From: Alphaproteobacteria bacterium
Lineage (GTDB): Bacteria; Pseudomonadota; Alphaproteobacteria; Rs-D84
Direction of reading: 5' to 3'
Length of the DNA stretch: 64,000 nt
Assembly (NCBI GenBank): GCA_013316395.1
Contig: WSMU01000001.1
Coordinates: 2,393 to 66,392, forward strand
Below the pieces are notes generated by a model, which was given only the letters and a program-made list of their open reading frames with translations, had not been told where the DNA came from and made no database searches. Shown piece by piece: positions 11,267 through 62,438 of this stretch (positions within the stretch are counted from its first letter, which is position 1; each line of letters begins with the position of its first letter). The translations under genes and the position numbers were made by a program.

Positions 11267-11278
11267 GGGATAAGAAAA

Positions 11279-12535
11279 ATGTTGTTTTCACGGCTGGAAA
11301 GAAAAATTGCTTTTCGATATATGTGGGCTAAGAAACGCGGATTTGGTTCCGTGATATCTTGGGTATCACTGGTTGGAATCGCGCTGGGGGTGGCGACCCT
11401 GATTGTTGTAATGTCGGTTATGGCCGGATTTCATGACACACTGCTGAATAGAATTGTTGGAATGAACGGGCATGTTGTTGTCTATCATCAGGATGGGGCA
11501 ATCGCAGATTATGATTTCCTGATAGATAAAATGCGCCAGAACAAGGTTGTAGCCGCCCGCGTGACCGATATTGTGCCAATCGCAGAAGGTCAGGTAATGG
11601 CCACCGCCGGCGGAAATAATACAGGGGCCATGATACGTGGAATACGTATGACCGACCTGCAGGCAAAGGTGGATAAGGGGACAAAAATATACGGTCGGCC
11701 GATTGCGGAAATAAAAGAAGGTGAACTGGTTGCAGGGGCTAATTTGACCCGGGCCTTGAATGTTACAATGGGGGACAAGATATCCCTGGTGTCGGCGGCG
11801 GGTGCAACACCAACGCCGTTTGGTACAATGCCGCGGATTATGGCGTATCCGGTGAAGTCTTCTTTCTTTATGGGAATGTATGAATACGACTCGGGGTATA
11901 TATTTATGCCGCTGGAAACATCGCAGAAGTATTTAAATATCGGAAATGCCGTAACGCATATAGACCTGTTCCTGGATGACCCGGAAGATACGCGTGCGGT
12001 TGCGGATGCATTGGCGCGCTTGTTGCCGGATGGTTTTGTTGTTCGTGACTGGCGTGATTTGAACCGCGGTTTTGTCGGCGCCCTGCAGGTGGAATCGAAC
12101 GTAATGTTTTTAATATTGATGCTGATAGTAATTGTCGCCGCATTTAATATAGTTTCAAGTCTGGTTATGCTGGTAAAGGATAAATCCAAAGATATTGCGG
12201 TACTGCGTACGTTTGGGGTGTCGCGCCGTTCTATGATGAAGATATTCATATTATCCGGGACCAGTATCGGTGTAATAGGTGCCCTTGTTGGAACCGTGTT
12301 GGGTGTTGTTGTCGCGATATACATAGAGCCCATACGCAAGGCGGTTCAGTTCATGACAGGTCGCGACCTGTTTCCGGCGGATTTGTATTATTTGTCGGAA
12401 CTGCCGTCAAAGTTGTCACCGGCCACGGTATTTGGGATTGCGGCGCTGGCGGTGGCGCTGGCTTTTGTGGCGACACTGTATCCCGCATGGAAGGCCGCAT
12501 CCACAGACCCTGTTGACGTACTAAGGAACGAATAA
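11279..12535 (+). CDS. Lipoprotein-releasing system permease, LolC/LolE (FtsX/MacB) family
   Basis: TM1, a large periplasmic domain, then three C-terminal TM helices; the N-terminus KIAFRYMWAKKRGFGSVISWVSLVGIALGVATLIVVMSVMAGF is typical of LolC/E. Confidence 0.8.
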   Translation: MLFSRLERKIAFRYMWAKKRGFGSVISWVSLVGIALGVATLIVVMSVMAGFHDTLLNRIVGMNGHVVVYHQDGAIADYDFLIDKMRQNKVVAARVTDIVPIAEGQVMATAGGNNTGAMIRGIRMTDLQAKVDKGTKIYGRPIAEIKEGELVAGANLTRALNVTMGDKISLVSAAGATPTPFGTMPRIMAYPVKSSFFMGMYEYDSGYIFMPLETSQKYLNIGNAVTHIDLFLDDPEDTRAVADALARLLPDGFVVRDWRDLNRGFVGALQVESNVMFLILMLIVIVAAFNIVSSLVMLVKDKSKDIAVLRTFGVSRRSMMKIFILSGTSIGVIGALVGTVLGVVVAIYIEPIRKAVQFMTGRDLFPADLYYLSELPSKLSPATVFGIAALAVALAFVATLYPAWKAASTDPVDVLRNE

Positions 12536-13245
12536 TGGCGAACATATTAAATTCTTTGTCAAAGGTATCACGCGGCGATGTTGTGTTGTCTGTGCGCGAT
12601 ATTAAAAAGACATTTATGGAAGGCGGCCAGCCGTTGCATATTTTGCGTGGTGGTGGTTTTGATTTGCACCGCGGCGAGATAATTGCACTGGTCGGACAGT
12701 CGGGCAGTGGAAAGTCAACTTTGCTGCAGTGTGTGGGACTGTTGGACCGTCCGTCGGCGGGCAGTATTTTAATAGGCGGAATCGCAGCCCAAAAGATGGA
12801 TGATGAAATGCGAACCGCAATGCGTCGCGATAAGATAGGCTTTGTATATCAGCGACATAATCTGTTGGGGGATTTTACGGCGCTGGAAAATGTGGTGCTG
12901 CCGATGTTGACGCGCGGTGTGGCAGAGGCCGATGCAAATATTCGGGCGTTAAAGCTGTTGCGGGCGGCAAATGTGGCGCATCGCGCATCACATCTGCCGG
13001 GCGAGATGTCCGGCGGCGAGCAGCAGCGAACCGCCGTTGCGCGCGCATTGGCAAACGGGCCAGAGATTTTATTAGCAGACGAGCCGACCGGCAGCCTGGA
13101 CCCGGCGCATGCCGCGGCTGTATTTGACCTGCTGCTTGACTTGGTGCGAAAGAATAAGATGGCGATGCTGTTTGTAACACATGATATGAATTTGGCCGCA
13201 CGCGCCGACAGAACAATTACAATAAAAGACGGAATAGTTAAATAA
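12535..13245 (+). CDS. lolD: Lipoprotein-releasing system ATP-binding protein LolD
   Basis: ABC Walker A GQSGSGKST, signature LSGGEQQR, Walker B ILLADEPT. Its start codon overlaps the permease stop (TAATG). Confidence 0.85.
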   Translation: MANILNSLSKVSRGDVVLSVRDIKKTFMEGGQPLHILRGGGFDLHRGEIIALVGQSGSGKSTLLQCVGLLDRPSAGSILIGGIAAQKMDDEMRTAMRRDKIGFVYQRHNLLGDFTALENVVLPMLTRGVAEADANIRALKLLRAANVAHRASHLPGEMSGGEQQRTAVARALANGPEILLADEPTGSLDPAHAAAVFDLLLDLVRKNKMAMLFVTHDMNLAARADRTITIKDGIVK

Positions 13246-13270
13246 ACAATAAAAAACGGAGGGAGAAGAC

Positions 13271-14014
13271 ATGGTAAAACAAAATACTACAAAGGTGGCA
13301 TGCTGTTCTCGGCGCCAGAAAATCTGGGGTATTATTGCATTGGCGGGGTTGTTTGCATGCGGACTAATGGTGGGGCTTGCCTTTAATGCCGGGGACCGTA
13401 GTTCAACAGTTGAACTGGCGGGTCACACAAATGACACAGAGCCCGATACAGCCGACAAGGAAACCTGTGAGGTAATAGAAGATTTTCTGTTGCGTCGAAT
13501 TAACCCCATTGATTCCGACCAGGTGGCCGCGCATAGTATGAATGTTGAAATATATCAGATACTGATAGAAAACGGATGTCCGGAAAATTCTGAAAAATAT
13601 CAGGCACTGATGCAGCAGGAATCTGCGATATTGGATATCTTAATCAACAGACAGATGCCTGAAAATTCTCAGACATGTTCGGAAATTCAATCCCTGCTGA
13701 TGCAGCAATTACCAAATGGTAATTTGAATGACAGCCAAACTCGCATCGAACGTGCAAAAATCTATGCTAACTTGTCCGAGCGCGGATGTCCTGAAAATTC
13801 GCAGCAGTATGCGGAACTGGCGGCGAAAGAATTGGAAATTGCCCGCGCTCTGCGTGATGACTACTTTAACCATAATGAAACACTTGAAGTGGTTGAAACC
13901 TACAAGCGCCTAGAGATGAAACAAGCCGCGGCGGACGTATTGGACAAGGTTCAAAAGCTGACCGACCCGGCGATTGACTTTATTATTCAAGTACAGAAGA
14001 TAATAGAAGAATAA
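13271..14014 (+). CDS. Membrane-anchored hypothetical protein with three ~38-aa (G/R)CPENS repeats
   Basis: N-terminal TM helix (IWGIIALAGLFACGLMVGLAF). Repeats are NGCPENSEKYQALMQQE, RQMPENSQTCSEIQSLLMQQ and RGCPENSQQYAELAAKE. Confidence 0.5.
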   Translation: MVKQNTTKVACCSRRQKIWGIIALAGLFACGLMVGLAFNAGDRSSTVELAGHTNDTEPDTADKETCEVIEDFLLRRINPIDSDQVAAHSMNVEIYQILIENGCPENSEKYQALMQQESAILDILINRQMPENSQTCSEIQSLLMQQLPNGNLNDSQTRIERAKIYANLSERGCPENSQQYAELAAKELEIARALRDDYFNHNETLEVVETYKRLEMKQAAADVLDKVQKLTDPAIDFIIQVQKIIEE

Positions 14015-14017
14015 AAG

Positions 14018-14656
14018 GTGGCGTCAATGCGTGGATTTATATTTGCATTAGTAGGTATTGCCATTTCATCCGCGGCGGTGGCGGCGGATGTGGCGGCGCG
14101 CCAGTCATGTGCCGACATCAAGGGACGTATCGACACATTGGCGGCGCAGGGGGATTTAAATGATTCTGATGCGGCACTGCTGACTGACTTGCGCGCGGCA
14201 TATCGTCGTGACTGTGTGGCGCGTGCATCGGGTCGCGGGTCACGGACAATCGCCGCCACACGCACCCAGATAGCCGTACCCCAGACGCCGGCGCAAAATA
14301 CTGATGCCGCCGCCGTGGCCCCGCAAGAGCCCCTGGTCGCGGACCCATGTGATAATCCGGATGCAAATGGCTGCTGTCCCGGGGAAGAATATGCCGACAT
14401 CGGAAACGGTGTAATGTATTGCTGTAAGGGGGATGCATGCTTTCCGCCGATGCCCGTGACACCATCGGTGCCGGAAAAGTCGGAGGAGGAAATCGCCGCC
14501 GAAATAGCGGCCAATATTGAAAAAGGTCTTTGCGGTGACGGCACCAAGCCCAACAAGTTCGGTTGCTGTGCTGGCGAGATTTTTAAGGATTTAGGTAATG
14601 CCACATTTGCCTGTTGCAAGAAAGACGGCGAAGAATGTTTCCCGCCAATGCAATAA
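14018..14656 (+). CDS. Secreted Cys-rich protein with a duplicated CC-x-GE...CCK-D-x-CFPPM module
   Basis: Signal peptide MASMRGFIFALVGIAISSAAVAADV. Two repeat units: GCCPGEEYADIGNGVMYCCKGDACFPPMP and GCCAGEIFKDLGNATFACCKKDGEECFPPMQ. Confidence 0.55.
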   Translation: MASMRGFIFALVGIAISSAAVAADVAARQSCADIKGRIDTLAAQGDLNDSDAALLTDLRAAYRRDCVARASGRGSRTIAATRTQIAVPQTPAQNTDAAAVAPQEPLVADPCDNPDANGCCPGEEYADIGNGVMYCCKGDACFPPMPVTPSVPEKSEEEIAAEIAANIEKGLCGDGTKPNKFGCCAGEIFKDLGNATFACCKKDGEECFPPMQ

Positions 14657-21130: not shown

Positions 21131-22318
21131 GTGGCAAAAGATAAATATTTATCCATGCGTAATTTTGTTAGCGGATTTTCATTCGCAAATTTCGGACTAT
21201 TTACCGGTTTCGCGGACGGAATTTATAATGCCGTTTATTCACTGGTTATTTTGGAGATATTTCGCTCGTCTGCGGTGGTTGGTGTTTATGTTGCCATATA
21301 TGCGGCATTTTGCATGGTTGTAGGATTGTTTGCAAACGAGCTGCTGCGTCAGTTTTCAAAGGCTAAGCTGTTTTATTTTTCAATGCTGATGCTGGCCGTG
21401 TGTTATGCCATGATGAGCTTTTCCATAAAACCGTTTACTTTTATCGCACTGGACTATACAACGGGTATTGCGATTACGCTGGTAGGTGTATTGATACCTT
21501 TGTTTATGTCCGACTTTTCAAAAAATATAGGCATGGCAAAGCTGAATGCGCGCTATCACCTGTGGTTAAATGTCGGGGCGTTGTTTGCACCGATGATAGC
21601 TGTTGCGATTGCGGGGCATTTTGGAAACAGGGCTGCGTTTTTTGCATCCGCGCTGATATACCTGGCCGGGTGGATGTTCTTTAAGTTTTGCGGAATAGTG
21701 CAGGAGGATAAAAAAATCCGCCCCGTTAATACGCGTCGTACAATTCGTGCGCTGGCACGTAATACGCGAATGTTCTTTCGTGCGCCCGGGATGGCACGCG
21801 CGTATGCGATAAATTTTGGGTACTACTCTTTGCGGGCGATGCGATATCTCTATGTTCCAATTGTTGTTATTGAAAACGGTTTTTCTAAGGATGCGCTGGG
21901 GTGGGTATTGACCCTGGGGATTATTCCATATCTGGTGCTAAGCGAATTTATGGGGCGTGCGGTTCGCCGCTATGGCAAGTCGATATGGCTGATGCTGGGG
22001 TTCGGTTCATTTGCACTGTTTTCGGCCGGGGCAACCGTGATTACGGGTGTGCCGCTGTTGGCAATATTCGTTTTATGGCAGATATCGGGGGCCTTAATGG
22101 AATCTGTGCATGACCTGATGTTCTTTGATACGGTAAAAAAATCCGACCAGGCCCGTTTCTATGGGATATTTAGAACGAGTGTTAACCTGCCTAATGTTGT
22201 GGCGCCAATTCTGGGGGCGGCATGTATTGCGATATATGGCACGACGGCCGCTGTATGGGGGGTAACGGCCGCAATTGGTGCAATGTCGGTGGGTGTGCTG
22301 ATAGGCGGGCGCCGTTAA
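21131..22318 (+). CDS. MFS-type transporter
   Basis: About 12 predicted TM helices in a 6+6 arrangement; no closer family assignment is possible. Confidence 0.65.
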
Positions 22319-47769: not shown

Positions 47770-47890
47770 ATACTTTTACCAATACGTGTTGCAACATAAA
47801 CTAAGAAAGGTCGGACAATGTCAGTGTTTTTTATGCTTTTTTATCGACTGTGATTATGGTATAATTTATCCCAAAAGGAGAACTTTTATT

Positions 47891-49132
47891 ATGAAAAAGC
47901 AGATGTCTTTATTTATATGGGCGGCGGCTGTTTTTGGCATGGCGCCTGTTTGGGCGGCGACAAACGTCGGTATGCGCGCCGCGTCCAGTGCGGATTTATC
48001 CGGTGCGCCGGCCGTACGTGCACGCGGGAATGTTAACTATGAAAAGTATGAAACACGTTCAACAACGCGTACTTATGATGTTAAGGACGGGGCGGACCTT
48101 TATTATACACAGCCCGCCAGCCGCAGCGCGCTGTATAAGCAGTATGATAATTCGGCACGTCGCACGGGCAGTGCTACTACAACGCGTAATGTTCGCACCA
48201 CACGTGCGGAGACGGTTCGTCGCGAGTTGAAACGTAAATATTATCTGGCGCATCCGTTTTTCCAGCCGCTGAAGGGCAAGTTTGGTTCGATTACGGATAT
48301 TGCATATGATATGAATTCGTATGACATGACACTGACCCCGGCCGATGGCATGACGATATCCGATACACGTGCAAAGTGGGATATGAAATCATTCTCGGTC
48401 AAAGAAGACTTTAGTTATGGTATTACGGACCGCTTGGCGGTACTGGCCATGGCGAAATATAATTCGACCAAATATAAGTTCGACTGGTCTACTGCGCCGG
48501 ACGACAAAATGGATGATGACGGTTTTAACTTGTACGGTCTGGGTGCCCAGTGGCGCTTTATTGACAATGAACAGTGGATTGGAACATTGTCCGGTTATTT
48601 CCAGCATCAGAAGGATATCGCCAATAGCTATATCTTGGATTTGAAGGGTGGGTATAAGATTGCACGCTCTACAATCTATGGATTGGCACGCGGTTGGTAT
48701 GTTGATTTTGAAGGTAACTCGTACGGTAACGGAATAGAGGGTACAACTGCCGAAGGGCAAAAGGCGGCAATCTTTATCGCGTATGATACCGATGTAGATA
48801 ATACTTTCTATATAGAAGGCGGCTTGGGCGTATTTAGCGTTCTTGATGAAGACTGGACGTTGAATCTGGAGGCTGTGTTCGGCAACTATGATTGGCATAA
48901 CCAGGCATCTATAAAGGGTGCAATCGGTTGGCAGCCCAATGATTGGGTCGCGCTTAACCTGTATGCAAAGACCGCGTTCTATGACAGTGCCGATGATAAA
49001 AAGCTGGGCTACTGGTCTTATGGCGCAGTTGGCGAAGATGGGAACCAACTGGGCTGGATGAAGCATGGCGAGGCAAAGCTGTCCGACTATAAGGAAACAT
49101 CGTTCGGGCTGCAGGCGATATTCCAGTTCTAA
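47891..49132 (+). CDS. Outer-membrane beta-barrel protein (hypothetical)
   Basis: Signal peptide MKKQMSLFIWAAAVFGMAPVWA, alternating amphipathic strands, C-terminal F (AIFQF). Confidence 0.5.
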   Translation: MKKQMSLFIWAAAVFGMAPVWAATNVGMRAASSADLSGAPAVRARGNVNYEKYETRSTTRTYDVKDGADLYYTQPASRSALYKQYDNSARRTGSATTTRNVRTTRAETVRRELKRKYYLAHPFFQPLKGKFGSITDIAYDMNSYDMTLTPADGMTISDTRAKWDMKSFSVKEDFSYGITDRLAVLAMAKYNSTKYKFDWSTAPDDKMDDDGFNLYGLGAQWRFIDNEQWIGTLSGYFQHQKDIANSYILDLKGGYKIARSTIYGLARGWYVDFEGNSYGNGIEGTTAEGQKAAIFIAYDTDVDNTFYIEGGLGVFSVLDEDWTLNLEAVFGNYDWHNQASIKGAIGWQPNDWVALNLYAKTAFYDSADDKKLGYWSYGAVGEDGNQLGWMKHGEAKLSDYKETSFGLQAIFQF

Positions 49133-49211
49133 GTCTTATTGCACGCGCCCCGGAATTTTTTCCGGGGTGCCTTTGTGTATGTAAAGGAAGTTAGCAAGGA
49201 TAGAGGAAGGA

Positions 49212-49934
49212 ATGTTTTATAAAAAGATTATTGTTGCATTTTTATGTTTGACCGCCGGTGTTTGTTCCGCATCACATGCGGGCGCATTGGAATTTGATAC
49301 GTCTGACCCGCTCTATATGCAGGGAACCGGGGAAATTTTATCAACATCTAATATTACATATTATGACAGCGTACTGCGTATCGGTCAGGCATTGTCATAC
49401 GGTTTTAGCGAGCGGTTTACCGCCGGTGTTAATCTGCATTACCAAAATGATTTTGCGGGCGACGAGGACGGATTTTCCAGCTTTGACCTGGGTGGTGTTT
49501 ATCGTCTGATGACCCCGGCTGAGAATAATCATCACATAATATCAGATGTTTTGTTCGGATTTAAATTTGGTGGCTCGTCCCATGTGCGAACACCATGGTT
49601 CGCAGATTCCACATATTATGCCGGCTTGCGCTTTGGGCGTCAGTGGGCGGGCGTAACCCTGGCCGGTACTATAAAGTCCAGCTGGATTTTCGATGATGAC
49701 CGCGGGATGTCTTATATAGACTTTATCCCAGAGGCGTATTTTAGATTGCGTGGCGCATGGCGTGCCGGAATAGGGGCGGATTTCCGCAAGGCTACGAATC
49801 CCGATTACGACCAGGAATGGATAAACGCCAAATTGGTGCGTCAATACGGACGGACGCAGTACATAGGGCATATAGATTATGAATTCGAAGGCGATGAATT
49901 TCAAATCGGGGTCAAACTGAATATCTTGTTTTAA
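49212..49934 (+). CDS. Small outer-membrane beta-barrel protein (hypothetical)
   Basis: Signal peptide with AHA cleavage site; C-terminal aromatic residue (NILF). Confidence 0.5.
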   Translation: MFYKKIIVAFLCLTAGVCSASHAGALEFDTSDPLYMQGTGEILSTSNITYYDSVLRIGQALSYGFSERFTAGVNLHYQNDFAGDEDGFSSFDLGGVYRLMTPAENNHHIISDVLFGFKFGGSSHVRTPWFADSTYYAGLRFGRQWAGVTLAGTIKSSWIFDDDRGMSYIDFIPEAYFRLRGAWRAGIGADFRKATNPDYDQEWINAKLVRQYGRTQYIGHIDYEFEGDEFQIGVKLNILF

Positions 49935-50000
49935 GAAGGCGCCGGTAGTGTAATTTTGCCTTTGTTCAAACATGTGGTTATGGTATAATTAACGGTAAGA

Positions 50001-52430
50001 ATGAAGAAAATCATTTCATGGATTTTTATCGTATTTGCTGCCTCGGCGTCTTATGGCGCGGATTCGGGGGCGATATCGCGTGCATTGCCATCGGCCACAT
50101 CAAATAATGACGCGGATGCGCCCGCACGCACAACCGCCGCCGCGGCCAGCGCGCGCAGCACATCGCGTACGACGGTTCGTCGTGATGTTGGCACCGCCAC
50201 AACCGTGCCCGCCACGGGGGCGGTATCGGCGCGGACTACGACCCGCGGGACAACCGCAGCAACGCCAACACCCACGCGCAGTGTCACGCCATCGCGCGGT
50301 GCGGCGGCGCGTACGGCGGCCGGTGGTGAAATGTCGGTGCGCGATAATTTGGATGCGGCGGTAAATACCGTTGGGCGGAATGCACGTGTGACGGCGGCAT
50401 CTGTTAACAGTGACCCGGCGGTGCGTCGGGCGGGAATGTCGCTGCGCCCCAGCACGGCAGAGGTTGGCGGCCGCGCAACCATTGCCGGAACAAATATTCA
50501 AACTGGCTCTAATATAGGGGAATCTGTACGTGCCCTGCAATCGCGGGCGGCATCTACAACGACGCAACGTGAAACTATATCAGAGGCCAAAGAGCGTCTG
50601 GAGCAGACGGCGGAACTGAACAAATCCTGCCAGGAGCAGTATAACGACTGTATGGACCAATTTTGTGCGGTGATTGACAATAATCAAAAGCGCTGCAGTT
50701 GCAGTGCGAATCTGGCGCGCTATACCAAGGTTGAAAGTGCTGTAAAAGATGCCAATACGCAGTTAAATGATGTGGCGCAAAGAATTCGTTACGTCGGATT
50801 ATCGGCGGATGAAATTCGGGCCATTATGTCCGCAACCGAGGCAGAAGAGGCACTGTCGGGGGCGCGTGACACAACAGAAACGCGCAGCATGCTGGAAGAC
50901 ATAGAGGCGTTGATTAAAAATCCCGCCAGCACGACCACCGGTGGTACGGATACATATTCCACGCTGGACCTGAATTTGGATTTTTCCGATACGTCCGATA
51001 TGTTTAATCTGGACTTTCTAAACAATAACAGCGGCAGCCTATCAAACCTGCGTGGGGCTGATTTATATAATGCGGCGAAGAAGCGCTGTAATACCATTTT
51101 GACCCAGTGCAAGGATGCCGGCGCGACAAGTCAGCAGATTACTGCAAATTATGACCTGGCGATTGACAAGGATTGTATCGCGTATGAGCAGGGGCTGACT
51201 AAAATGAATGAAACGTTGGTCTCGAATGTGCGCAGTGCGAATCTGATGCTGCAAAAGGCGCGTTTGGCCGTTTTGCAGAATAAAAATGAATACGATGCAA
51301 AGGGTTGTATCGCGGCCTTGGATTCGTGTATGACCGATGAAATGGTTTGTGGTGAAGATTATGTAAAGTGTCTGGACCCGACCAAGAAGTATATAGACGA
51401 AAACGGCAAGGTCGTTCTGGGGCAGGATATTACAGATATTCTCTCTTTTATGAAAAAGTATGATAATTCAAATATTAAAACAGAATTTTTACAATCTGCT
51501 GCGCAGAGGTCTATCTCAGGCGATGCCTGTGCCAAGTCGGTCGAGGGTGAAGCTGGTGGTGGCGACGGGTGGTGCGCGGTTAAATATTTGCTGCAGAAAA
51601 TCGGAACGGGTGTGCGGGTCACCGATGGCGGTTTGTGTCGCGCGGTACTGGACAAGTGTCAGCGGTATACGTATGACAGCAATAATAAGTATCAGCCTTA
51701 TAATGATGTTGTTGTTAATTATATTCAGCGCGCAATGGTAAATATAAAATCGGGCCAGTCAAAAGTAATATCAGATTATGCATCCAGCTGTATGGTTGAC
51801 GTTGCAACATGCTATAACCAGCAGGTAACGCAGGTAAATGCATGGAGCTCGTCCGCCAATGTAAGCAGCATCCGCAAAGTTATGAGTGGTGCCTGTCGGA
51901 ATGTGGCGCTGACATGCGGATACGCCATCTTTGGTGAGGTATGCGAAAGCGACACAAATAGCAACTTAAATAAGGTTGGAACTCTGTCCGTCAGCGGAGA
52001 GGTCGCCGGACAGGATACCAAACCTGTGGGGCCGCCATCTGTGCTAAATCAGGGTACTTTACAGCCGGGTAATGCAGGTCAGACTTCCTTGTCAGATTTG
52101 ATAAATGCAGCTGTTGTGCCAGAAGATTGCAGTGACAACGGTATAATAGAAGAGATATCGACCATGTTCTATAACAGCATGTTGTGTCCGGATAACTCGA
52201 CATATACCGGAACAACAAAAGAACACGCTAATGAAGCCGATAAATCTAAGTATGTAAATGATTTATGCGTGTGCAATACGAATTATGAGCCATGGGGTGG
52301 GCAGTGTATGAATAAATGCCCGACAGATGCTGAGAATGGTGCGGGTCGTAATTCTTATGGAACATGTACATGTAAGACCGGCTATACATATAAAAACGGC
52401 GTATGTACGGAAAACACTACGACGCAATAA
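50001..52430 (+). CDS. Large secreted Cys-rich protein with a Thr/Ala/Arg-rich low-complexity region and an EGF-like C-terminus
   Basis: Signal peptide MKKIISWIFIVFAASASYGA. Residues ~30-165 are TTAAA/RTT low complexity. About 40 Cys follow. The C-terminal CTCKTGYTYKNGVC matches EGF-like spacing. Confidence 0.5.
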   Translation: MKKIISWIFIVFAASASYGADSGAISRALPSATSNNDADAPARTTAAAASARSTSRTTVRRDVGTATTVPATGAVSARTTTRGTTAATPTPTRSVTPSRGAAARTAAGGEMSVRDNLDAAVNTVGRNARVTAASVNSDPAVRRAGMSLRPSTAEVGGRATIAGTNIQTGSNIGESVRALQSRAASTTTQRETISEAKERLEQTAELNKSCQEQYNDCMDQFCAVIDNNQKRCSCSANLARYTKVESAVKDANTQLNDVAQRIRYVGLSADEIRAIMSATEAEEALSGARDTTETRSMLEDIEALIKNPASTTTGGTDTYSTLDLNLDFSDTSDMFNLDFLNNNSGSLSNLRGADLYNAAKKRCNTILTQCKDAGATSQQITANYDLAIDKDCIAYEQGLTKMNETLVSNVRSANLMLQKARLAVLQNKNEYDAKGCIAALDSCMTDEMVCGEDYVKCLDPTKKYIDENGKVVLGQDITDILSFMKKYDNSNIKTEFLQSAAQRSISGDACAKSVEGEAGGGDGWCAVKYLLQKIGTGVRVTDGGLCRAVLDKCQRYTYDSNNKYQPYNDVVVNYIQRAMVNIKSGQSKVISDYASSCMVDVATCYNQQVTQVNAWSSSANVSSIRKVMSGACRNVALTCGYAIFGEVCESDTNSNLNKVGTLSVSGEVAGQDTKPVGPPSVLNQGTLQPGNAGQTSLSDLINAAVVPEDCSDNGIIEEISTMFYNSMLCPDNSTYTGTTKEHANEADKSKYVNDLCVCNTNYEPWGGQCMNKCPTDAENGAGRNSYGTCTCKTGYTYKNGVCTENTTTQ

Positions 52431-52432
52431 AA

Positions 52433-52455
52433 AACCGGGAATTTCCCGGTTTTTT
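52433..52455. terminator. Bidirectional terminator
   Basis: ACCGGGAA-TTTCCCGGT perfect palindrome, flanked by A- and T-runs. Confidence 0.7.
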
Positions 52456-53155
52456 ATCCTGTGATTTTGGCCATAAATGCGTTATGGGTCGCGCGTTCCT
52501 GGGGTGGGGCCGGGAATTCACGACGGGGAAAGTTCGCCCCGATTTTAGGATGGTTTAGCATTGCCTGGTGCTGCTGGGCGATTATTTCGGATATATCCGG
52601 TGCCGGCGCCGTGTTTTCCAGTTCCAGGTAAACCTTTGCTAAAATTTCAGAGTCGATTAAAGCCCCGTGTGCGTCTGCACGTGCCGTCAGTGATATGCCA
52701 TACCATTTTGCCAGTGCATCCAATGTAAAAAGTTTTGGGCCAAAAAGACGGTTGCGCGCCAGGACAAGTGAATCTATCTGCTGGCTGCGTGGAATCTGGG
52801 GCAGGCCAAGTTTTGCAAGCTCATGATTTACAAAAGGAAAGTCAAAGTCCTGGCCGTTGTGTGCAACAATAGGGGAATCGCCAACAAACTCCAAAAAGCG
52901 CGGCGCAATAACATTCATTTTGGGCTTGTCTTCTAGGAAGGCGTTTGAAATTTTATGAACCATATATGTTTCTGGGGGAATAATTTTTCCCTCCGGATTT
53001 ATGTATTCATGGAACGAGTTATCGGTTATAACGCCGTCAATGATTTCTACTGCACCGATTTCGATACATCTGTCGCCGCGCAGATATTCAAATCCGGTCG
53101 TTTCAATGTCAAAGCAAATAACGCGTTTCATCTTCCATTTCCCTTTGATAAGCAA
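52454..53155 (-). CDS. DnaQ-like 3'-5' exonuclease (DNA polymerase III epsilon family)
   Basis: Exo I CFDIETTG, Exo II and Exo III (HGALIDSEIL) motifs; 233 aa. Confidence 0.7.
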   Translation of the reverse strand: MLIKGKWKMKRVICFDIETTGFEYLRGDRCIEIGAVEIIDGVITDNSFHEYINPEGKIIPPETYMVHKISNAFLEDKPKMNVIAPRFLEFVGDSPIVAHNGQDFDFPFVNHELAKLGLPQIPRSQQIDSLVLARNRLFGPKLFTLDALAKWYGISLTARADAHGALIDSEILAKVYLELENTAPAPDISEIIAQQHQAMLNHPKIGANFPRREFPAPPQERATHNAFMAKITG

Positions 53156-55272: not shown

Positions 55273-56574
55273 TCAGGATTTTTTACTGTCTTTATATAGC
55301 TTCCAGTATTTTTTCGACTGGTCACGAATGTTTTTAGCAAGCTTTGTTATGTCTTTGCCAAATTGCTGACCCAGGGAGTCATCAATACTGCCGCCCAGGT
55401 CTTTTGCAATTTTCATTGCCTTGTCCGCCAGATATGCAACCAGGCATCCGATAAGCAAGGTTATCATGAACCCTTCGTTGTCTATTGTCGGAACCTGGGC
55501 CGCCAGGTTGGTGTCAACAACACCGGACAATATCGCCGCGCACAACGCCACAACAATGGACAGCGATACAAAATAAATAGCCGCGTTTATAAAGCGTGTT
55601 ATTTGAGCCGACAGGTTTTCTGTTTTAAACAACCCTAAGAGTCCGTTGAATATTGTGCCGGCTATTCCGGTGTATGATGTTTTCCCGACTGTTTCCGCAA
55701 TCGCTGTAAACGGCAGCATAAATATCGCCAGGAATAAATCCGCAATAACACCCAATGCCATTAACGCAAATTTCCATATATTGATTAGGAATATTATTAT
55801 GAATGCGACACCTATAATAAATGTAAACATGCTGTGACCTATGCCGGCCAGCATCCATTTCCAGCCCGCCGCCACCGCGGTATAGAAAAATCCGGACAGG
55901 CGTGTCGGAACACACATAATGTCTGCGGCGGCATTGGCATCGATAATTGCATCGGGTGATATATGTGCCGCGGCATAGTCGCGTATTGCCGCACATGTGT
56001 CGGGCAGGGTGGCGCCCGCCGTTTGTGCCACGGCATTTAATATCAAATCAGACATATATGTACCGACAGTGATAATCGGACCCGCAACCAGCATAAATGT
56101 TTCGGCGGGACCGTATTCGATTACAAATACCCATATCGCGATTGTAAAACCTTTTTTAACAATGCCTTCGATTGTTTTTCTGACCTCGGCGGCGCCTATT
56201 ATCATTTGATATGCCTCGAACCCCATCCAGAACATAAAGGCTATGGCGATAAATATTGTTGCAAAACGCACCAGCGAACTGTCCAGAATACGGCCCAGAT
56301 ATGTCATCGCGTTGATAAACGCCAGACCTATCTTTGCCTCGACAGGGACATAGTTTTCGACCAACTGGTTTTGAAAGTCCGATTGAAAAAAGTCTATGTC
56401 CTGGGATAAGTCGGTTGTAAAAGATTCCAGATTATGCGGTGTAGTCCACGCGCCATAGTCGCTGATGTCCCCAGATGCGGAGGGAATATTTGTCGCCGCG
56501 CTTGCGCCGGGCAAAACAAGAATCACACCCAGCGCGCAGACAATAATTTTTGAAAATAGCTTTTTTACTAACAT
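55273..56574 (-). CDS. Polytopic membrane protein, VirB6/TrbL-like (paralogue 4 of 5)
   Basis: Signal peptide, periplasmic segment, at least 6 TM helices, Lys-rich C-terminal tail. One of a tandem array of similar proteins. Confidence 0.45.
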   Translation of the reverse strand: MLVKKLFSKIIVCALGVILVLPGASAATNIPSASGDISDYGAWTTPHNLESFTTDLSQDIDFFQSDFQNQLVENYVPVEAKIGLAFINAMTYLGRILDSSLVRFATIFIAIAFMFWMGFEAYQMIIGAAEVRKTIEGIVKKGFTIAIWVFVIEYGPAETFMLVAGPIITVGTYMSDLILNAVAQTAGATLPDTCAAIRDYAAAHISPDAIIDANAAADIMCVPTRLSGFFYTAVAAGWKWMLAGIGHSMFTFIIGVAFIIIFLINIWKFALMALGVIADLFLAIFMLPFTAIAETVGKTSYTGIAGTIFNGLLGLFKTENLSAQITRFINAAIYFVSLSIVVALCAAILSGVVDTNLAAQVPTIDNEGFMITLLIGCLVAYLADKAMKIAKDLGGSIDDSLGQQFGKDITKLAKNIRDQSKKYWKLYKDSKKS

Positions 56575-56585
56575 CTGGTCTCTTG

Positions 56586-58022
56586 TTATTTTTTGCCGAA
56601 AGACTTGGATAGTGCCCCGAATATCTGTGTTGGTGCGGACCAGATTTTCTTGCCTAAATCCTTGGTCCAGGCGCCAAAGTCGAATTCTTCTTTTGATGGC
56701 GCGGCCAGTATCTTGTTAACGCGCGGCGCCACAACATAATAATATAACAGGAACAAGCCTATCATTAGCATCAGGAAATCCCAGCCGTCCGACATAAAGT
56801 CAAATGCACCCGGATAGTGGCGTTCAACCTCGGCACGGCGTGCGGTAAAGCAGGCCTTGAAGCGGGCGGCATCCATTTCGCCATCGGCCAAGGCAACGCG
56901 TTCGCAGTCTGAAAATACGCGCATTACCGACAGTGTTTGGGCATCCGGGTTTTCAGGCGCCACCCCCAGCATCGGCGGCAGTATCGCACTGTAGCCATCG
57001 GCGGGGCCGGGGAAGAATTCATCGGCTGCGTATGATATGGTTGCATACAGGATAACTATTTTAAGTGTGATAGCGACTATTTGAATTGCAGATTTTACCA
57101 GCATATTGACTGCATTACCGGTAAGGCCCGATGCCAGTTTCCATGTCTTTTCAAATGCCGCGGCCGCTAATAAAAATGGCAGGAATATTATTAGGAACAC
57201 CAACTTGAACACGACAGAGAGCACCTGGAAGAATAGGTCAAAGCCGATTATTAAAAACATTAGCACCAGCGCCAGTCCCGCCAGCCATGTAAACAATCCG
57301 CCCCCCAGCCCCAGCCATGCATAGTTCATCAGCGCAAAACCGCCCGCCGCCCCGGCGAGCATTACACTATTTAAATTGCCCATAACACACATAAAGGGGC
57401 CCATAACAGGATTTAATATATCGTCAGAGTTTTCGGCCGTCTGTTCCAGTACGTGACACTGTGACGCCTCCGATGTGCCGGTGGCGGCCATAGACAGCTC
57501 GGCCCCGACAAACATTACCGGTGTTATTGTAATTGATGCGACTGTTTTTAGGGCCGCCGTGCCGCCCATTCCCAGCACGCCCATCATTGCGCCAACAATC
57601 ATAATTCGTGCGCCTTGGCGCCAGACTTTGTCGAACCATGATGTGAAGTCTAGCTTTTTTTCAGATGTATCCAGTGCGGTTGTTTTTTGCGCCGCGCCAT
57701 AGATATGCCTTATGGCTTCGATAAATAAAAATATGCCAAAGCCCACGGCCATAAGTATCCACAGCCATTGAACAATGGCATCCCAGAACATTTCCGTGGC
57801 ACGTCCGATGACGGCAAACAGGTCTGAGATATAGCCGCACATAAAGCACCCGGATGCATCGGCGATGTTATCCGATGCACCGATTGCCCCCATAAAGCCT
57901 TCCATGCTGGTATATGTCAGCGCGGCGCCCCCGATTGATGACGACAGATACCAAATACCAATCCCCAGGGCGACGGCACCCATTAAAAAACGTATGGCAA
58001 TCAAGATTAGTTGCGCTTTCAT
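56586..58022 (-). CDS. Polytopic membrane protein, VirB6/TrbL-like (paralogue 3)
   Basis: Same architecture as its neighbours. N-terminal CFMCGYISDLF motif shared with paralogues 2 and 5. Confidence 0.45.
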   Translation of the reverse strand: MKAQLILIAIRFLMGAVALGIGIWYLSSSIGGAALTYTSMEGFMGAIGASDNIADASGCFMCGYISDLFAVIGRATEMFWDAIVQWLWILMAVGFGIFLFIEAIRHIYGAAQKTTALDTSEKKLDFTSWFDKVWRQGARIMIVGAMMGVLGMGGTAALKTVASITITPVMFVGAELSMAATGTSEASQCHVLEQTAENSDDILNPVMGPFMCVMGNLNSVMLAGAAGGFALMNYAWLGLGGGLFTWLAGLALVLMFLIIGFDLFFQVLSVVFKLVFLIIFLPFLLAAAAFEKTWKLASGLTGNAVNMLVKSAIQIVAITLKIVILYATISYAADEFFPGPADGYSAILPPMLGVAPENPDAQTLSVMRVFSDCERVALADGEMDAARFKACFTARRAEVERHYPGAFDFMSDGWDFLMLMIGLFLLYYYVVAPRVNKILAAPSKEEFDFGAWTKDLGKKIWSAPTQIFGALSKSFGKK

Positions 58023-59218
58023 TTACCGTCCGATTTGCTGTCTTTTGTGTCGCCGCCGCTGATTACGATGCCACCGATTTTTTTCGCTGTTTGTGCAATC
58101 GCGGATGTCAGTTTCATTGCATCGTTTGCCAACTGTTCGCTAAGTTCGGTTTCCGTGCTGACTTCAAATGCCCCCAGAATCATTTTTGTAACCTGGGGTA
58201 TTTGGTCGTATATATAGTTTAGAACATACACCAGAACAATTGCCCCCCCCAGGGTCATCTGCGCCAGGTTATCCTGGCTAAGGTCTGATGCAAATACTTC
58301 GCCGTTTGTAATCAGCGTCATTAAATCCGCCGCTGATTCGCCCGGGGTTGAAAAGAACTTTGCGATAATTACCATTATAACGGTATATGTAATCACCGCC
58401 GCCGCCAGGCCGATAATGGCACCGATGACTTTTTTAAACTGTTCCGCGCCGACGTTTTTCCCCAGTGATGACAGCCACTTTGGCCCGTCTGCGCCCTTGA
58501 ATGCGACCAGTGTCAGCGACAGCGGAAACAAAAACGCAAAAAATGTCATGGCGACAATGATGTCGGCAAAGTAAAAACAGAAACGCACAAAGAGCTTAAA
58601 GAAGCCATAGAAAAGATAAAGCCCGATAGCAAATAGTATTATATGCTTTATAACCGCGCCAACCCCCAGCAGGGCGGACCATGAAAACGCGTTGTCCATT
58701 ATGGCGATGCCCAGCTTCATGTATGCCTGGAACTGTGTAATGGTTGTCTTCATAATATTGATGACAGTATCGCGCAGTTCGGGACGATAGAAGCCGTCAT
58801 CAGACATTGGCATCGGCTGGTAGGTAACACGTTCTGCGACGGTTTCTTCGTCTATTTGCAGCATGTTTTGCGTATATGCGGCGGTTATCTGGGCGACGGG
58901 TTCAAACGTTATTGTTGTAACAAACCGGGGCAGCATTACCCCCAGCGACAGAAATGCAAACGCCACCAGTGAATTGATTATAACCGGCTGAATAGATTTG
59001 GCATAAAACGGGTCGGTGCCGCCGCCTTTGATGTTTTTCCATACGGCGCTTATGGCAAAAAACGCAAACAGAACACAAAACAGCACCGCGCAAAACAAAA
59101 CGAATTTATCATAGACCGATGCGGCGGCGGCGGATATTACCTGGAACAGTCTGTCAAAGACAGGGCAGCCCCAGCACTGCACGCTATCTTCGATTAAAGG
59201 GTTTATCCATTGGTTCAT
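58019..59218 (-). CDS. Polytopic membrane protein, VirB6/TrbL-like (paralogue 2)
   Basis: CWGCPVFDRLF motif after the first hydrophobic segment; multiple TM helices; hydrophilic K/D/S-rich tail. Confidence 0.45.
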   Translation of the reverse strand: MNQWINPLIEDSVQCWGCPVFDRLFQVISAAAASVYDKFVLFCAVLFCVLFAFFAISAVWKNIKGGGTDPFYAKSIQPVIINSLVAFAFLSLGVMLPRFVTTITFEPVAQITAAYTQNMLQIDEETVAERVTYQPMPMSDDGFYRPELRDTVINIMKTTITQFQAYMKLGIAIMDNAFSWSALLGVGAVIKHIILFAIGLYLFYGFFKLFVRFCFYFADIIVAMTFFAFLFPLSLTLVAFKGADGPKWLSSLGKNVGAEQFKKVIGAIIGLAAAVITYTVIMVIIAKFFSTPGESAADLMTLITNGEVFASDLSQDNLAQMTLGGAIVLVYVLNYIYDQIPQVTKMILGAFEVSTETELSEQLANDAMKLTSAIAQTAKKIGGIVISGGDTKDSKSDGK

Positions 59219-60507
59219 TATTTTTTCTTTATCCAGCCGGCGGCCTTGCCGATTGATTTACCCCAGTTCTTTGCACCGGCCCATGTCTTTTTCGCATCGC
59301 CCGTCACACGGTTATATAGCGCATCAGACGCCGGTGCATACATCTTTAGCCGTTCGCGTGTTAAATCAAAAATCCGCAGCATCAGATAGAATGTCAAGAT
59401 AGCGGACATCCACATTACCGAGTGGCCGCCAAAGCCCATGTCGGTATTTGCCACGGTTGGGATGTTTGATGCCGCGCTGCCGCCGGCGGCGACAACAAAT
59501 ACCGAAGAGTTCCAGTTAAACAGCGCGCGCACGATTGCAACGTTAATGGTTAATATGAACGCGCATGCAATCATTGTTATAATTAGCGTCTGTAGCGCCT
59601 TGGTTATGCCGGAGAATGCGGGCCATATATCGAACCACTTGTCGGGATTCTTTGGCTTTGCGACCCAGGTCAGAACCTGAAACGGGTAGAGAATCAGTGC
59701 CATTCCGAATTCAAAAATCGCCTGAATAATCAGCAGCGCCATAAACAGGTTACAGCCGACGAATGTGGTTACCAGCAATATTCCAGATATTACGTTCATA
59801 AAGTCTTCGCCGCCGTGCGGTATCAGTGTAATCAGCCCGCGCAGTCCGCGATGAATAAATTCAAAGCCGCGTTTTATCATTTGGTTGTTTGTGTGGCTGA
59901 TGTCGGCAACAGGCTGGGTCAGGAATTCGCAACTGCGTTCTGATATCCAGCCGTGTTCAAGTATGTCGGGCGGGCAGGGAACCTGAGGGGCGGCGGATGC
60001 AACGATGCCGCCTGTATTTATTCCATCCGTAATGGCGCGGGTGTAAATTGCGCCGAATTCCAGAAACGGGTTAACCAGCCATTCTGTTACATATACCGGC
60101 TTTAACTGAAGCAGTACAACCGCGGCGATAATGGCGCGCATGCCGGGTTTTAGCATGTTTTGTGCGATTGTCATTGCATCGGCCTTTCCGGTAGCCATTT
60201 CCCCGCCGCCGGAAAATCCAAAGAACGACACCCACTTGGCCGGAAAGTACATTTTCACCAGGTATAGCGCCATTGATATTCCCAGGAACAGCCATACCAG
60301 CATGTATATAATACCGTTGCCGCGGCCGACAAAAAATTCATAGCCGCCGGTTGCAACCGTCATAAATGCGTCAAGTACCATTGGCACGAACGGTGCCAGG
60401 TTAAAGCTGTCCACGATGCCCCACGCGGCATGTGCAGACATTGGCGCAAACATGACGCATAATGCGGCCAGGGCGGGTAAAAATTTTTTAATCAGATGCA
60501 TAGACAT
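59218..60507 (-). CDS. Polytopic membrane protein, VirB6/TrbL-like (paralogue 1)
   Basis: Signal peptide (AAWG), multiple TM helices, Lys-rich tail. Its start codon overlaps the next gene's stop. Confidence 0.45.
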   Translation of the reverse strand: MSMHLIKKFLPALAALCVMFAPMSAHAAWGIVDSFNLAPFVPMVLDAFMTVATGGYEFFVGRGNGIIYMLVWLFLGISMALYLVKMYFPAKWVSFFGFSGGGEMATGKADAMTIAQNMLKPGMRAIIAAVVLLQLKPVYVTEWLVNPFLEFGAIYTRAITDGINTGGIVASAAPQVPCPPDILEHGWISERSCEFLTQPVADISHTNNQMIKRGFEFIHRGLRGLITLIPHGGEDFMNVISGILLVTTFVGCNLFMALLIIQAIFEFGMALILYPFQVLTWVAKPKNPDKWFDIWPAFSGITKALQTLIITMIACAFILTINVAIVRALFNWNSSVFVVAAGGSAASNIPTVANTDMGFGGHSVMWMSAILTFYLMLRIFDLTRERLKMYAPASDALYNRVTGDAKKTWAGAKNWGKSIGKAAGWIKKK

Positions 60508-60564
60508 ATATTTATTGTTTTCAATTATATCACATTTGGGGGAAAATGTGATATAGTTAAAGCA

Positions 60565-61860
60565 ATGGGGCGCCTAAAAAAATTTTGGATAGTGTTTTTG
60601 TCTTTCCTGCCGCTGTCGGCGGGTGCGGTGGCGCCGTTTGTTGTTGGTGGCATCGCGGGTGCGGTGGGAATTGTGGGCTTTTCCATATTTCGTACGGCCG
60701 CGCCGGTTAATATGTCGGATGCGCTTACGTTTTTCAGCAGTTGCTGGACATGCGACATGTTCGGCAGTGTTATGTCCACGATGTCTATATTATTGCCAAA
60801 GGCGTTTCATGCAATCGCGGGTGTGGTAATACCTTTTGCGGCGGTTTTAACAGCGGTTTGGTTTGCGTGGAAAATTTTTTCAGGATTTTTAAATGCCAAG
60901 ATTGACGACCCCTGGTCGATTACAGGCCTGTTTGGTACGCATCTTATAAAGCTTTGCTTTGTATGCGCGCTGCTGGCATTGCCGTTGCCGCGGTTGATAT
61001 CTCAAATCGCGATAGAGCCGATATTTACAGTTGGTCTGTCGGTAAATCATATTGCGGCGGATATGGCGGGTGAAAACAAATTTAACGAATGTGTTGTTGC
61101 GACCGCGCTGGCCGATGCCACGATTACCGATTCGCAGGCCGCCGATGCGGGCGCGTTTTCGCCAAATCTGCGTCATAATTTGGCGTGCGAGGTTGGAAAT
61201 GTTCACCAGATGACAGGTCTGGGGATGACGGTGGGTTGGACCATGATGAATATGGCCTTTAACGCCCAGTACATGCACAAGATTATGTGGGATGTTCCTA
61301 TTTTTCCAAATGTTCCGATATTCTTTTGCGGTTTGATGATAATAGTGCTGTTCTTTTTCGCACTGCTGCCGATTCCGATTTATTTCCTGGAGATATTTAT
61401 AAAGCTGTCGATGGATTTAATCATGCTGCCGCTGATGCTGCTGGGGTGGTTGTTTAAGGGCTGGCCGATATTCCCCCAGGGTGGGCGCACAATAAAAAGC
61501 ATGATAGATGATGTAGTCCAGGGTACAGTCGGTATCGCGATGACGGGTGTGTTTTTAACATTTGCGATAATGTTTTTAAATGCGGTATTTGGCAGTTGGA
61601 GTGGGGCGACGCGATTGGCGGCGGCGCTGCGTGAAAACGATTCGACGCTGCTGATGGATGGTCTGCTGATGCGTAACGACAGTATTGTTACAATAATCCT
61701 TATGGGAATTTTTATCGCGATGTTCATGACAATGATACCTGCACTGGTTAAGACGCTGTTTAATGTCCAGATATCGGATAAATATTACGAATCGACGAAA
61801 AAGAATTTAAATATAATGTGGGGAAATATGAAAAAATGGTACGCCGCGTTAAAAAAATAA
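60565..61860 (+). CDS. Polytopic membrane protein, VirB6/TrbL-like (paralogue 5, opposite strand)
   Basis: Signal peptide MGRLKKFWIVFLSFLPLSAGA, CWTCDMF motif, multiple TM helices, K-rich tail. Divergent from the other four. Confidence 0.45.
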   Translation: MGRLKKFWIVFLSFLPLSAGAVAPFVVGGIAGAVGIVGFSIFRTAAPVNMSDALTFFSSCWTCDMFGSVMSTMSILLPKAFHAIAGVVIPFAAVLTAVWFAWKIFSGFLNAKIDDPWSITGLFGTHLIKLCFVCALLALPLPRLISQIAIEPIFTVGLSVNHIAADMAGENKFNECVVATALADATITDSQAADAGAFSPNLRHNLACEVGNVHQMTGLGMTVGWTMMNMAFNAQYMHKIMWDVPIFPNVPIFFCGLMIIVLFFFALLPIPIYFLEIFIKLSMDLIMLPLMLLGWLFKGWPIFPQGGRTIKSMIDDVVQGTVGIAMTGVFLTFAIMFLNAVFGSWSGATRLAAALRENDSTLLMDGLLMRNDSIVTIILMGIFIAMFMTMIPALVKTLFNVQISDKYYESTKKNLNIMWGNMKKWYAALKK

Positions 61861-61928
61861 AAAATCAAGTGCTTTATTTAATGCCGGCCCCTTTTTTGAA
61901 TATTCCGAATCTGATATAATTCATACCG

Positions 61929-62438
61929 ATGAAAAAGTTTCCGATTCTTTACTGGCCCCGAAACACAAAGGGTGACGAAGAATATCGCCTGGCGCGTAAG
62001 GTGATTAGCAATGCGACCGGCGTTATGCCCCGGCTGTGGGCCGAAGACCTGGATTTGGGTCGTATATTTTCGGAAAATCCGGATGCGGCGGTTTATTATC
62101 CCGTATTTTGTGAAAGCACGGGCTGGTGGGGCGAGCTGCTGGGGGGTGATGCGGTTGTTACGGACAAGGTTATTATTTCCCCGGAATGTCAGCTAATGGT
62201 GATAGAGGCCGCGCATCATGCACGCAGTCGCGGCGGGACGCAGCTGCTGGCGGCAGAGATATATCCGGCCAGCGGCTTTTTCAAGAAGATGAACAGCGGC
62301 ATCGCCACGGTGGCGGACATGCTGGCGACGGATACGGGAACAATACTGGCACTGTTTTCAGGGAAAAGTTCCGCGTCATTTATAAATGTATTGGAATCGA
62401 CGGGTAATTCGTATCTGGGGTGCATTGGGCGATACTAG
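61929..62438 (+). CDS. Hypothetical protein
   Basis: 169-aa ORF with no confident family assignment. Confidence 0.4.
   Translation: MKKFPILYWPRNTKGDEEYRLARKVISNATGVMPRLWAEDLDLGRIFSENPDAAVYYPVFCESTGWWGELLGGDAVVTDKVIISPECQLMVIEAAHHARSRGGTQLLAAEIYPASGFFKKMNSGIATVADMLATDTGTILALFSGKSSASFINVLESTGNSYLGCIGRY

Follow-up and report, generated by a model that had tools for sequence, protein, structure and literature searches.

TraN, the Cys-rich outer-membrane protein that stabilises mating pairs in F-type conjugation systems, is large, secreted and rich in conserved cysteines (Cys), and combines a conserved base with a variable tip that recognises the surface of the partner cell. The Listeria-Bacteroides repeat (Flg_new, PF09479) is known mainly from surface proteins such as internalins, and the twin-CX9C/CX3C CHCH proteins and the cysteine-rich Sel1-like repeat proteins of Helicobacter are disulfide-stapled helical hairpins. 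Here we compare these systems with CYS, a large Cys-rich secreted protein of 809 residues encoded at 50001-52430 (forward strand, stop codon included) in a 64,000-nucleotide stretch of DNA, the window, from an alphaproteobacterium of the order Rs-D84 (assembly GCA_013316395.1, contig WSMU01000001.1). We read CYS, with a probability of about one half, as a lineage-specific surface protein that binds a ligand and consists of a rigid, conserved stalk and an exposed tip that diversifies.

The likeness to TraN is one of function only: CYS has no match among 72,556 plasmids (tblastn, E <= 1), no TraN domain by Pfam and no fold match in the PDB. Long members of the CYS family carry Flg_new repeats and share with Flg_new surface proteins an arrangement in which the part near the cell is conserved and the distal part, which binds, is variable, but the CYS of the window has no such repeats, its core is unrelated to the leucine-rich-repeat domains of internalins, and the organism is diderm and lacks an LPXTG or GW anchor. 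Pairs of Cys at fixed spacing on adjacent helices suggest helix-helix staples like those of the CHCH and Sel1-like proteins, although CYS has CX6C spacing, lies outside the cytoplasm and is far larger, and Foldseek finds no similarity. The C-terminal units of CYS recall epidermal growth factor (EGF)-like domains in their CxC..G(Y/F)..C spacing, in their predicted two-stranded hairpins, in weak but consistent matches to Pfam families of the EGF clan and in their stacking as extracellular modules in long homologues; they differ in having four Cys rather than six, with the C1-C3 disulfide missing, in scores that stay below threshold, and in being bacterial and lineage-specific. As in two-partner secretion (TPS) and other operons that join an adhesin to an outer-membrane protein (OMP), the gene for a large secreted protein adjoins genes for probable beta-barrel OMPs in the window, but CYS has no TPS domain, there is no Omp85 or POTRA transporter (Pfam, NCBIfam), and the adjacency is not conserved.

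CYS has no match in Pfam, NCBIfam, PHROGs or the PDB by sequence or profile. Its parts are as follows, with nucleotide positions counted along the window and with identities given as means to the window protein over 86 orthologues:

50001..50096, forward strand: signal peptide (residues 1-20) and a conserved post-cleavage motif, ISRA(I/L)P, with R27 and P30 invariant in alignment A1.
50097..50330, forward strand: variable, basic, low-complexity tract of Thr, Ser, Ala and Arg (residues 33-110), 19% identity, up to 121 residues long in orthologues, with a net positive charge.
50331..50516, forward strand: Arg-rich motif (residues 111-172), ...VGRNARVxAASxNxxPAVRRAGxxLRPSTAEVGGRA..., 72% identity.
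50577..51950, forward strand: strongly conserved, all-helical core (residues 193-650) with 18 conserved Cys, 72% identity.
51951..52133, forward strand: disordered linker or insertion (residues 651-711), 6% identity, 61 residues in the window protein against a median of 14; it holds the allelic cassette.
About 51948-52091, forward strand: allelic cassette (about residues 650-697), present in the species as two alleles that are deeply diverged.
52134..52427, forward strand: C-terminal module (residues 712-809), 41% identity; a single helix leads into two beta-hairpin units of the form CxC-x10-C, and the module has 8 Cys.

CYS contains 30 Cys, fewer than the roughly 40 estimated in an earlier note made from the DNA alone. 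The 18 in the core (C210, 217, 222, 232, 234, 363, 370, 392, 436, 443, 450, 457, 546, 553, 597, 604, 632 and 639) are mostly spaced as CX6C and are invariant or at least 90% conserved in alignments that reach down to 27-28% identity; the Arg-rich motif is missing from the most distant family members. An AlphaFold2 model of residues 186-809, built on an alignment of 78 diverse sequences, has a predicted local distance difference test score (pLDDT) of 82.5 and a predicted template modelling score of 0.65, with long helices in the core followed by beta hairpins and with residues 311-328 and 657-695 disordered; a model of the full length with 35 close homologues (pLDDT 55) was too poor for use. 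Foldseek found no relative of the core fold, the best matches (E 1.3 in the PDB, E 0.064 in BFVD) being generic helical bundles. From the spacing and conservation of its Cys, we infer that the core is a disulfide-stapled helical stalk.

More than 1000 homologues of CYS were found, and among the best 120, at 57-99% identity, none carries a Pfam domain or is informatively named. When 1.84 billion representative proteins were searched with a profile, 698 clusters at 50% identity emerged (E <= 0.001), ranging in length from about 230 to 2338 residues, and a scan of one genome per species found a relative encoded in at least 581 genomes. The source names of the homologues are 'Candidatus Enterousia', 'Alphaproteobacteria bacterium' and 'Rickettsiales bacterium', all of them uncultured gut Alphaproteobacteria, and the family, so far uncharacterised, is by these searches confined to Rs-D84/Candidatus Enterousia. 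In the long homologues (1100-2300 residues), EGF-like units of the form CxC..GY..C are repeated many times, and Listeria-Bacteroides repeats score above the Pfam threshold in 5 of the 11 that were scanned (P0127, P0128, P0129, P0132 and P0136), where they sit downstream of the conserved core. The small, Cys-knotted hairpin module that ends CYS is, in other family members, either replaced or present in more copies. This multiplication of distal modules fits an exposed binding tip.

The number of family members per genome also varies. Several paralogues occur in some genomes, among them the metagenome-assembled genome (MAG) LBB23, with at least three named paralogues. On one contig of this distant Rs-D84-like MAG (locus L086, GCA_031283185.1), five CYS-family open reading frames (ORFs) lie at 5460-14122 and 21302-22282, which shows a lineage-specific expansion; these paralogues adjoin a protein of 1851 residues with a faint match to a Chlamydia polymorphic membrane protein. 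A more distant paralogue, CYS2, of about 690-780 residues, shares with CYS only the first Cys module (residues 203-285) and lies just upstream of CYS in 31 Enterousia loci, usually with rplU-rpmA between the two (L001 at 6951-9020, L004 at 6776-9115, L005 at 6660-8732 and 28 other loci). The 64-kb window contains neither a second CYS nor a CYS2.

The C-terminal module, which the earlier note had taken to be EGF-like, is partly so. It is confidently modelled (pLDDT 84-96) as one helix followed by seven short strands at 756-758, 762-765, 768-771, 780-783, 789-791, 795-798 and 801-804 (pLDDT 93-96), and the small two-stranded beta-sheet fold is accompanied by the EGF sub-motif: the PROSITE EGF_2-type signature, C-x-C-x2-[GP]-[FYW]-x4,8-C, matches CYS once, at 789-802, and most homologues twice, the first unit of CYS having N in place of G/P. 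Among 16 orthologous modules, matches to EGF-clan families of Pfam are consistent (EGF_MSP1_1 and EB in 16/16, Pvs28 in 15/16, cEGF in 14/16, EGF_2 in 12/16), and among PDB profiles the top match is to EphA2, in its Cys-rich region (E 0.073). All of the EGF-clan scores nevertheless fall under the gathering thresholds; the best of the 16 modules reaches E 3.1e-5 (EGF_MSP1_1), the module of the window only E 0.14 (12.7 bits against a cut-off of 27), and whole CYS has no EGF-clan match in Pfam at E <= 0.1. The 8 Cys of residues 729-802 are arranged as C-x26-CxC-x10-C-x3-C-x15-CxC-x10-C, which gives two units of four Cys, each lacking one Cys pair of the six-Cys EGF arrangement (1-3, 2-4, 5-6). 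Judging from its recurrence, the module is a stackable building block of the bacterial CYS family, and because it recurs in this way a eukaryotic origin is not needed for what the earlier note called a eukaryote-like module. That note had also named beforehand, as grounds for giving up an adhesin, the lack of an EGF-like fold together with enzymatic homologues; what we find instead is that EGF-like beta-hairpin units are predicted, that CYS has no enzymatic or other known domain and that no homologue has an enzymatic domain. The proposal of an adhesin or host-interaction factor survives the note's own test and retains these supports, along with the secretion of CYS, and loses its dedicated OMPs, as described below.

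Within the species, the hotspot of variation is the linker, at residues 650-697. Among 17 variants of CYS from strains of one species (93-100% identity), the share of variable columns is 11.5% in the tract, 3.3% in the core, 52% in the linker and 24.5% in the C-terminal module. Two types of linker allele exist, and they appear in mosaic combinations with alleles of the tract. Comparing the window with locus L122 of the same species, synonymous divergence (dS) in the linker is 0.86 and non-synonymous divergence (dN) 0.25, while dS is 0.015-0.057 elsewhere in CYS and 0.02-0.05 in seven flanking genes; the C-terminal module shows 6 non-synonymous differences and 0 synonymous ones. This pattern marks the exchange of a cassette of ancient divergence, at about residues 650-697, and the cassette may be under balancing or diversifying selection.

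The DNA of the tract had attracted attention as a repeat-like, GC-rich segment whose length could change. Its composition is as the earlier note described it, with 66.7% G+C at 50090-50500 against 49.3% in the window, and the surplus falls on the first and second codon positions (0.63 and 0.74) and therefore reflects the Ala, Arg, Thr and Gly content of the protein. Tandem Repeats Finder (minimum score 30) found no tandem repeats in the tract, and the DNA contains merely short, imperfect, scattered matches of two or three copies. Contrary to the claim that all six frames stay open here, only the coding frame is free of stops; two minus frames have 1 each and the other frames 2, 3 and 7. The supposed low-complexity tract of about 140 residues also proved to be of two kinds, since residues 33-110 are indeed variable and of low complexity, whereas residues 111-172 form the conserved Arg-rich motif. 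A contingency locus, with length change by slipped-strand mispairing, was rejected, there being no tandem repeats and a single indel of 2 residues among the 17 strain variants; the variation in length between strains that the earlier note had thought possible is minimal.

In the mechanism that we favour, CYS would be exported by the Sec pathway, and its CX6C Cys pairs, acting as disulfide staples between neighbouring helices, would make the stalk rigid and resistant to proteases. Tethering to the cell envelope would fall to the basic disordered tract together with the Arg-rich motif, and the linker and C-terminal module would be exposed at the surface, where their ligand would be carried by a partner cell, host mucus or particles; the exposed part would then diversify by exchange of allelic cassettes and by gain and loss of modules. 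Surface exposure of the tip is suggested by analogy with the domains discussed above and by the pattern of variation. Several observations weigh against a surface ligand-binding protein. Neither a route across the outer membrane nor an anchor can be recognised: searches of CYS against Pfam and NCBIfam revealed no beta-barrel or lipobox, no TPS or autotransporter domain and no known sorting signal, and the AlphaFold2 model, helical with small hairpins, likewise contains no autotransporter beta-barrel translocator domain. The core is about as conserved as UvrD; an adhesin would not usually be so, and the conservation suggests that the core has an internal partner which is itself conserved. The dN/dS of 0.29 in the linker marks an imported divergent allele and does not demonstrate positive selection. 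A weakness, finally, is that the disulfides that we propose, at least nine, are hard to explain in an anaerobe reported to lack a respiratory chain (PMC12306168).

How CYS relates to its neighbours was examined by gene order, starting from CYS and starting from OMP1. The features upstream of CYS and at its end are as follows:

47857..47865, forward strand: extended -10 box TGGTATAAT, 25 nucleotides upstream of the OMP1 start codon.
47891-49132, forward strand: OMP1, an ORF of 413 residues ending ...IFQF; it begins with the signal peptide MKKQMSLFIWAAAVFGMAPVWA, with cleavage before ATN.
47957-48265, forward strand: conserved, Arg/Thr/Ser-rich, non-barrel N-terminal extension of OMP1 (about residues 23-125).
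49145..49170, forward strand: strong terminator-like hairpin downstream of OMP1, with 11 pairs, 8 being G-C, then a T-rich tail.
49212-49934, forward strand: OMP2, an ORF of 240 residues ending ...NILF.
49981..49989, forward strand: extended -10 box TGGTATAAT of CYS, its TATAAT ending 11 nucleotides before the ATG.
52427..52457, forward strand: terminator-like hairpin at the CYS stop codon, 14 pairs, shared with the convergent dnaQ-like gene.

The three adjacent ORFs reported in the earlier note (two with signal peptides and a C-terminal Phe, then the secreted protein of 809 residues) were confirmed, and OMP1, OMP2 and CYS alike begin with a Sec-type signal peptide. OMP1 and OMP2 are probably beta-barrel outer-membrane proteins because their endings are conserved, they lack a hydrophobic helix beyond the signal peptide, and they contain amphipathic segments. 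A C-terminal beta-signal with a final aromatic residue (...GLQAIFQF in OMP1, ...KLNILF in OMP2) is kept in 34 distinct sequences of each; a crude hydrophobicity scan places 33% of the residues of OMP1, 51% of OMP2 and 19% of CYS in period-2 amphipathic segments, and it counts 7 such segments in OMP2 and 9 within the last 250 residues of OMP1. Sequence and profile searches of Pfam, NCBIfam, PHROGs and the PDB found no relative of either protein, and OMP2 may be distantly paralogous to OMP1 (hhalign probability 38%, E 3e-4). The N-terminal extension of OMP1 resembles the CYS tract in composition, and the two may have a common way of contacting the envelope. A string common to OMP1 and CYS, AAS..PAVRxxG, was set aside as probably due to chance, its strict form occurring in the OMP1 of the window species only.

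These three genes rarely stand together. Starting from CYS, OMP1-OMP2 lies directly upstream in 5/80 species loci, all in the subclade of the window, and 6 kb away in one more, and most other CYS loci have rplU-rpmA or CYS2 upstream. Starting from OMP1, in 33 metagenome loci, OMP2 follows in every locus long enough, ftsK precedes in 20, and CYS follows in one. The adjacency of all three on one strand is found in the window and its closest relatives (L002, L003, L006-L009, L020, L089 and L122). Downstream of CYS, the order dnaQ-uvrD-M1..M5-P169, which includes an array of membrane-protein genes, is present in about 40/80 species loci; the array is near CYS in rearranged form in six (directly adjacent in L056, upstream in L035) and is not in the fetched flanks of about 27/80. 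Because OMP1-centred and CYS-centred loci conserve different neighbours, the window is a junction of two separately conserved blocks, ftsK-OMP1-OMP2 and CYS-dnaQ-uvrD-membrane array, and OMP1 and OMP2 are best explained as neighbours of CYS by gene order only, not as the dedicated partners that the earlier note had made of them.

Signals for transcription divide the three genes in a similar way. The TATAAT of CYS lies 11 nucleotides from the ATG, and a very short leader is therefore implied, with a 5' end predicted at 4-6 nucleotides before the ATG. TGnTATAAT occurs within 40 nucleotides of the CYS ATG in 65/66 distinct upstream regions, mostly ending 10-13 nucleotides before it, and is kept whatever gene is upstream. 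The window has six TGnTATAAT sites, five of which lie 7-25 nucleotides upstream of start codons (9097-9105, reverse strand; 47857-47865, forward; 49981-49989, forward; 60524-60532, reverse; 61912-61920, forward), one of them preceding the M4-M1 operon. This placement implies 5' leaders that are very short or missing, which may hold for gene expression in this organism in general. The hairpin at 52427-52457 resembles a bidirectional terminator; the stop codons of CYS and the dnaQ-like gene are only 23 nucleotides apart. No terminator-like site was found between OMP2 and CYS. Judged by these signals, CYS is separately transcribed, with its own promoter and terminator, and an obligatory co-transcription with the OMP genes is unlikely because CYS has its own promoter and a terminator-like hairpin follows OMP1; the picture of a single three-gene cluster given in the earlier note does not hold.

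The membrane array downstream consists of five tandem paralogous polytopic membrane proteins (M1-M5, spanning 55273..61860) and is conserved in about 50 related species:

55273-56574, reverse strand: M1.
56586-58022, reverse strand: M2.
58019-59218, reverse strand: M3.
59218-60507, reverse strand: M4.
60496-61860, forward strand: M5.
61929-62438, forward strand: P169.

Pairwise hhalign probabilities among M1-M5 range from 0.2% to 97% and exceed 60% for 8/10 pairs, and the family numbers 753 proteins, all from the lineage to which CYS is also restricted. An N-terminal CxxC is present in M2 (CFMC), M3 (CWGC) and M5 (CWTC), and M2 has six invariant Cys. An identity of the array with TrbL/VirB6 was not substantiated: M2 scores 16.1 bits against TrbL (PF04610; E 0.0099), short of the gathering score of 25.9 bits, a TrbL match at E <= 0.1 is found in 2/15 M2 orthologues, and M1, M3, M4 and M5 have none. 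The array has no match in the PDB, in NCBIfam or on plasmids, including a tblastn search of M2 and M5 against 72,556 plasmids.

Other explanations of CYS draw on parts of the same evidence. That it is a periplasmic scaffold or tether, linking the outer membrane, peptidoglycan and inner-membrane proteins, with the variable parts as unconstrained spacers, is in our view unlikely, although this would accommodate the 72% identity of the core and Arg-rich motif across species and the absence, in Pfam and NCBIfam searches, of any feature for outer-membrane translocation. Its basic disordered tract could bind peptidoglycan or lipopolysaccharide, and the similar composition of the OMP1 extension would fit as well. 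Such a scaffold would hardly leave room in the periplasm for C-terminal extensions to about 1500 residues, made of Listeria-Bacteroides repeats and EGF-like units, and a neutral spacer would share the dS of the rest of the gene, unlike the linker alleles. More doubtful still is a role for CYS as the extracytoplasmic subunit of an envelope machine formed with M1-M5, perhaps for contact-dependent uptake or secretion and distantly like VirB6/TrbL. The retention of CYS-dnaQ-uvrD-M1..M5-P169 in about half of the species loci, the persistence of the array near CYS in the six rearranged loci, the mutual relationship of M1-M5, the sub-threshold TrbL match of M2 and the restriction of both families to one lineage all suggest such an association. 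However, two housekeeping genes stand between CYS and the array, about 27 loci are without the array in their flanks, the TrbL match extends to few M2 orthologues and is joined by no match in the PDB, NCBIfam or plasmids, and CYS and the M4-M1 operon have separate promoters.

We give very little credence to the idea that OMP1 and OMP2 are dedicated partners for the export or anchoring of CYS, two-partner-like or usher-like and encoded in one co-transcribed operon. The three genes do adjoin on one strand in the window and its closest relatives, with no terminator-like site between OMP2 and CYS, but synteny largely refutes an operon, the adjacency being seen in 5/80 loci counted from CYS and 1/33 counted from OMP1, and rplU-rpmA or a CYS paralogue is upstream of CYS in most genomes. 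A terminator-like hairpin follows OMP1, the CYS promoter is conserved in every context, and Pfam finds no TPS, POTRA or Omp85 domain in any of the three proteins. It is just as improbable that the C-terminal module came from a eukaryotic host as an EGF domain and mimics a ligand of that host. The EGF_2-type pattern at 789-802, the profile match to EphA2, a human protein, and the EGF-clan matches speak for such an acquisition; every match is, however, below its curated threshold (that of the window module reaching E 0.14 only), the units have four Cys rather than the six of an EGF domain, the unit recurs throughout a bacterial family whose hosts range from termites to humans, and the G+C content and codon use of the module match those of the rest of the CYS gene.

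The surroundings of the locus are those of an ordinary chromosome. The window contains aspS, uvrB, ftsQ/ftsA, lolC-type genes, recA, glycosyltransferase genes, typA, serS, trxB, a xerC/D-type gene, lptF/G, mutL, secDF, genes for an S41 protease and a PAP2 protein, ftsK, the dnaQ-like gene, uvrD and two tRNAs, and a protein identical to the CYS of the window is present on 22 contigs of up to 710 kb. A prophage or mobile-element origin was rejected, given the housekeeping neighbours, the absence of PHROG matches and a composition that is even outside the tract. Directly downstream of ftsQ, a single ORF of 593 residues (6623-8404, reverse strand) encodes FtsA-type domains at residues 184-324 and a ribulose-phosphate 3-epimerase domain at residues 394-574 and is either a gene fusion or two genes without a stop between them.

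The host lineage gives a surface ligand-binding protein a possible context. Enterousia (order Rs-D84) has a genome of less than 1 Mb; it has neither flagella nor a tricarboxylic acid cycle, does not respire and lacks most biosynthesis, and a dependence on partner cells has been proposed for it (PMC12306168). Candidatus Enterousia/Rs-D84 is widespread in the guts of humans, rodents, pigs, ruminants, birds and termites, and the route by which it obtains nutrients or contacts partners has not been described (PMC12306168); the occurrence of the order in termite guts is also reported elsewhere (PMC11257099). Literature searches for Enterousia and Rs-D84 gave papers on genome reduction and none on CYS. 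Much more speculatively, and with a low probability in our estimation, CYS, its paralogues and M1-M5 might together form a new envelope apparatus by which Rs-D84 bacteria, having almost no biosynthesis or standard transporters, attach to another cell and draw metabolites from it, in which the array may oxidise the Cys of CYS-family proteins independently of quinones, because M2, M3 and M5 carry CxxC. Encoded in at least 581 species and expressed from a strong promoter of its own, with an unrecognised, disulfide-rich helical fold and a tip that appears to diversify, CYS is a prime candidate for how Rs-D84 cells interact with their surroundings. It also offers a usable handle, the conserved core for detection or enrichment and the variable cassette for strain typing, and the family merits the definition of a domain in databases.

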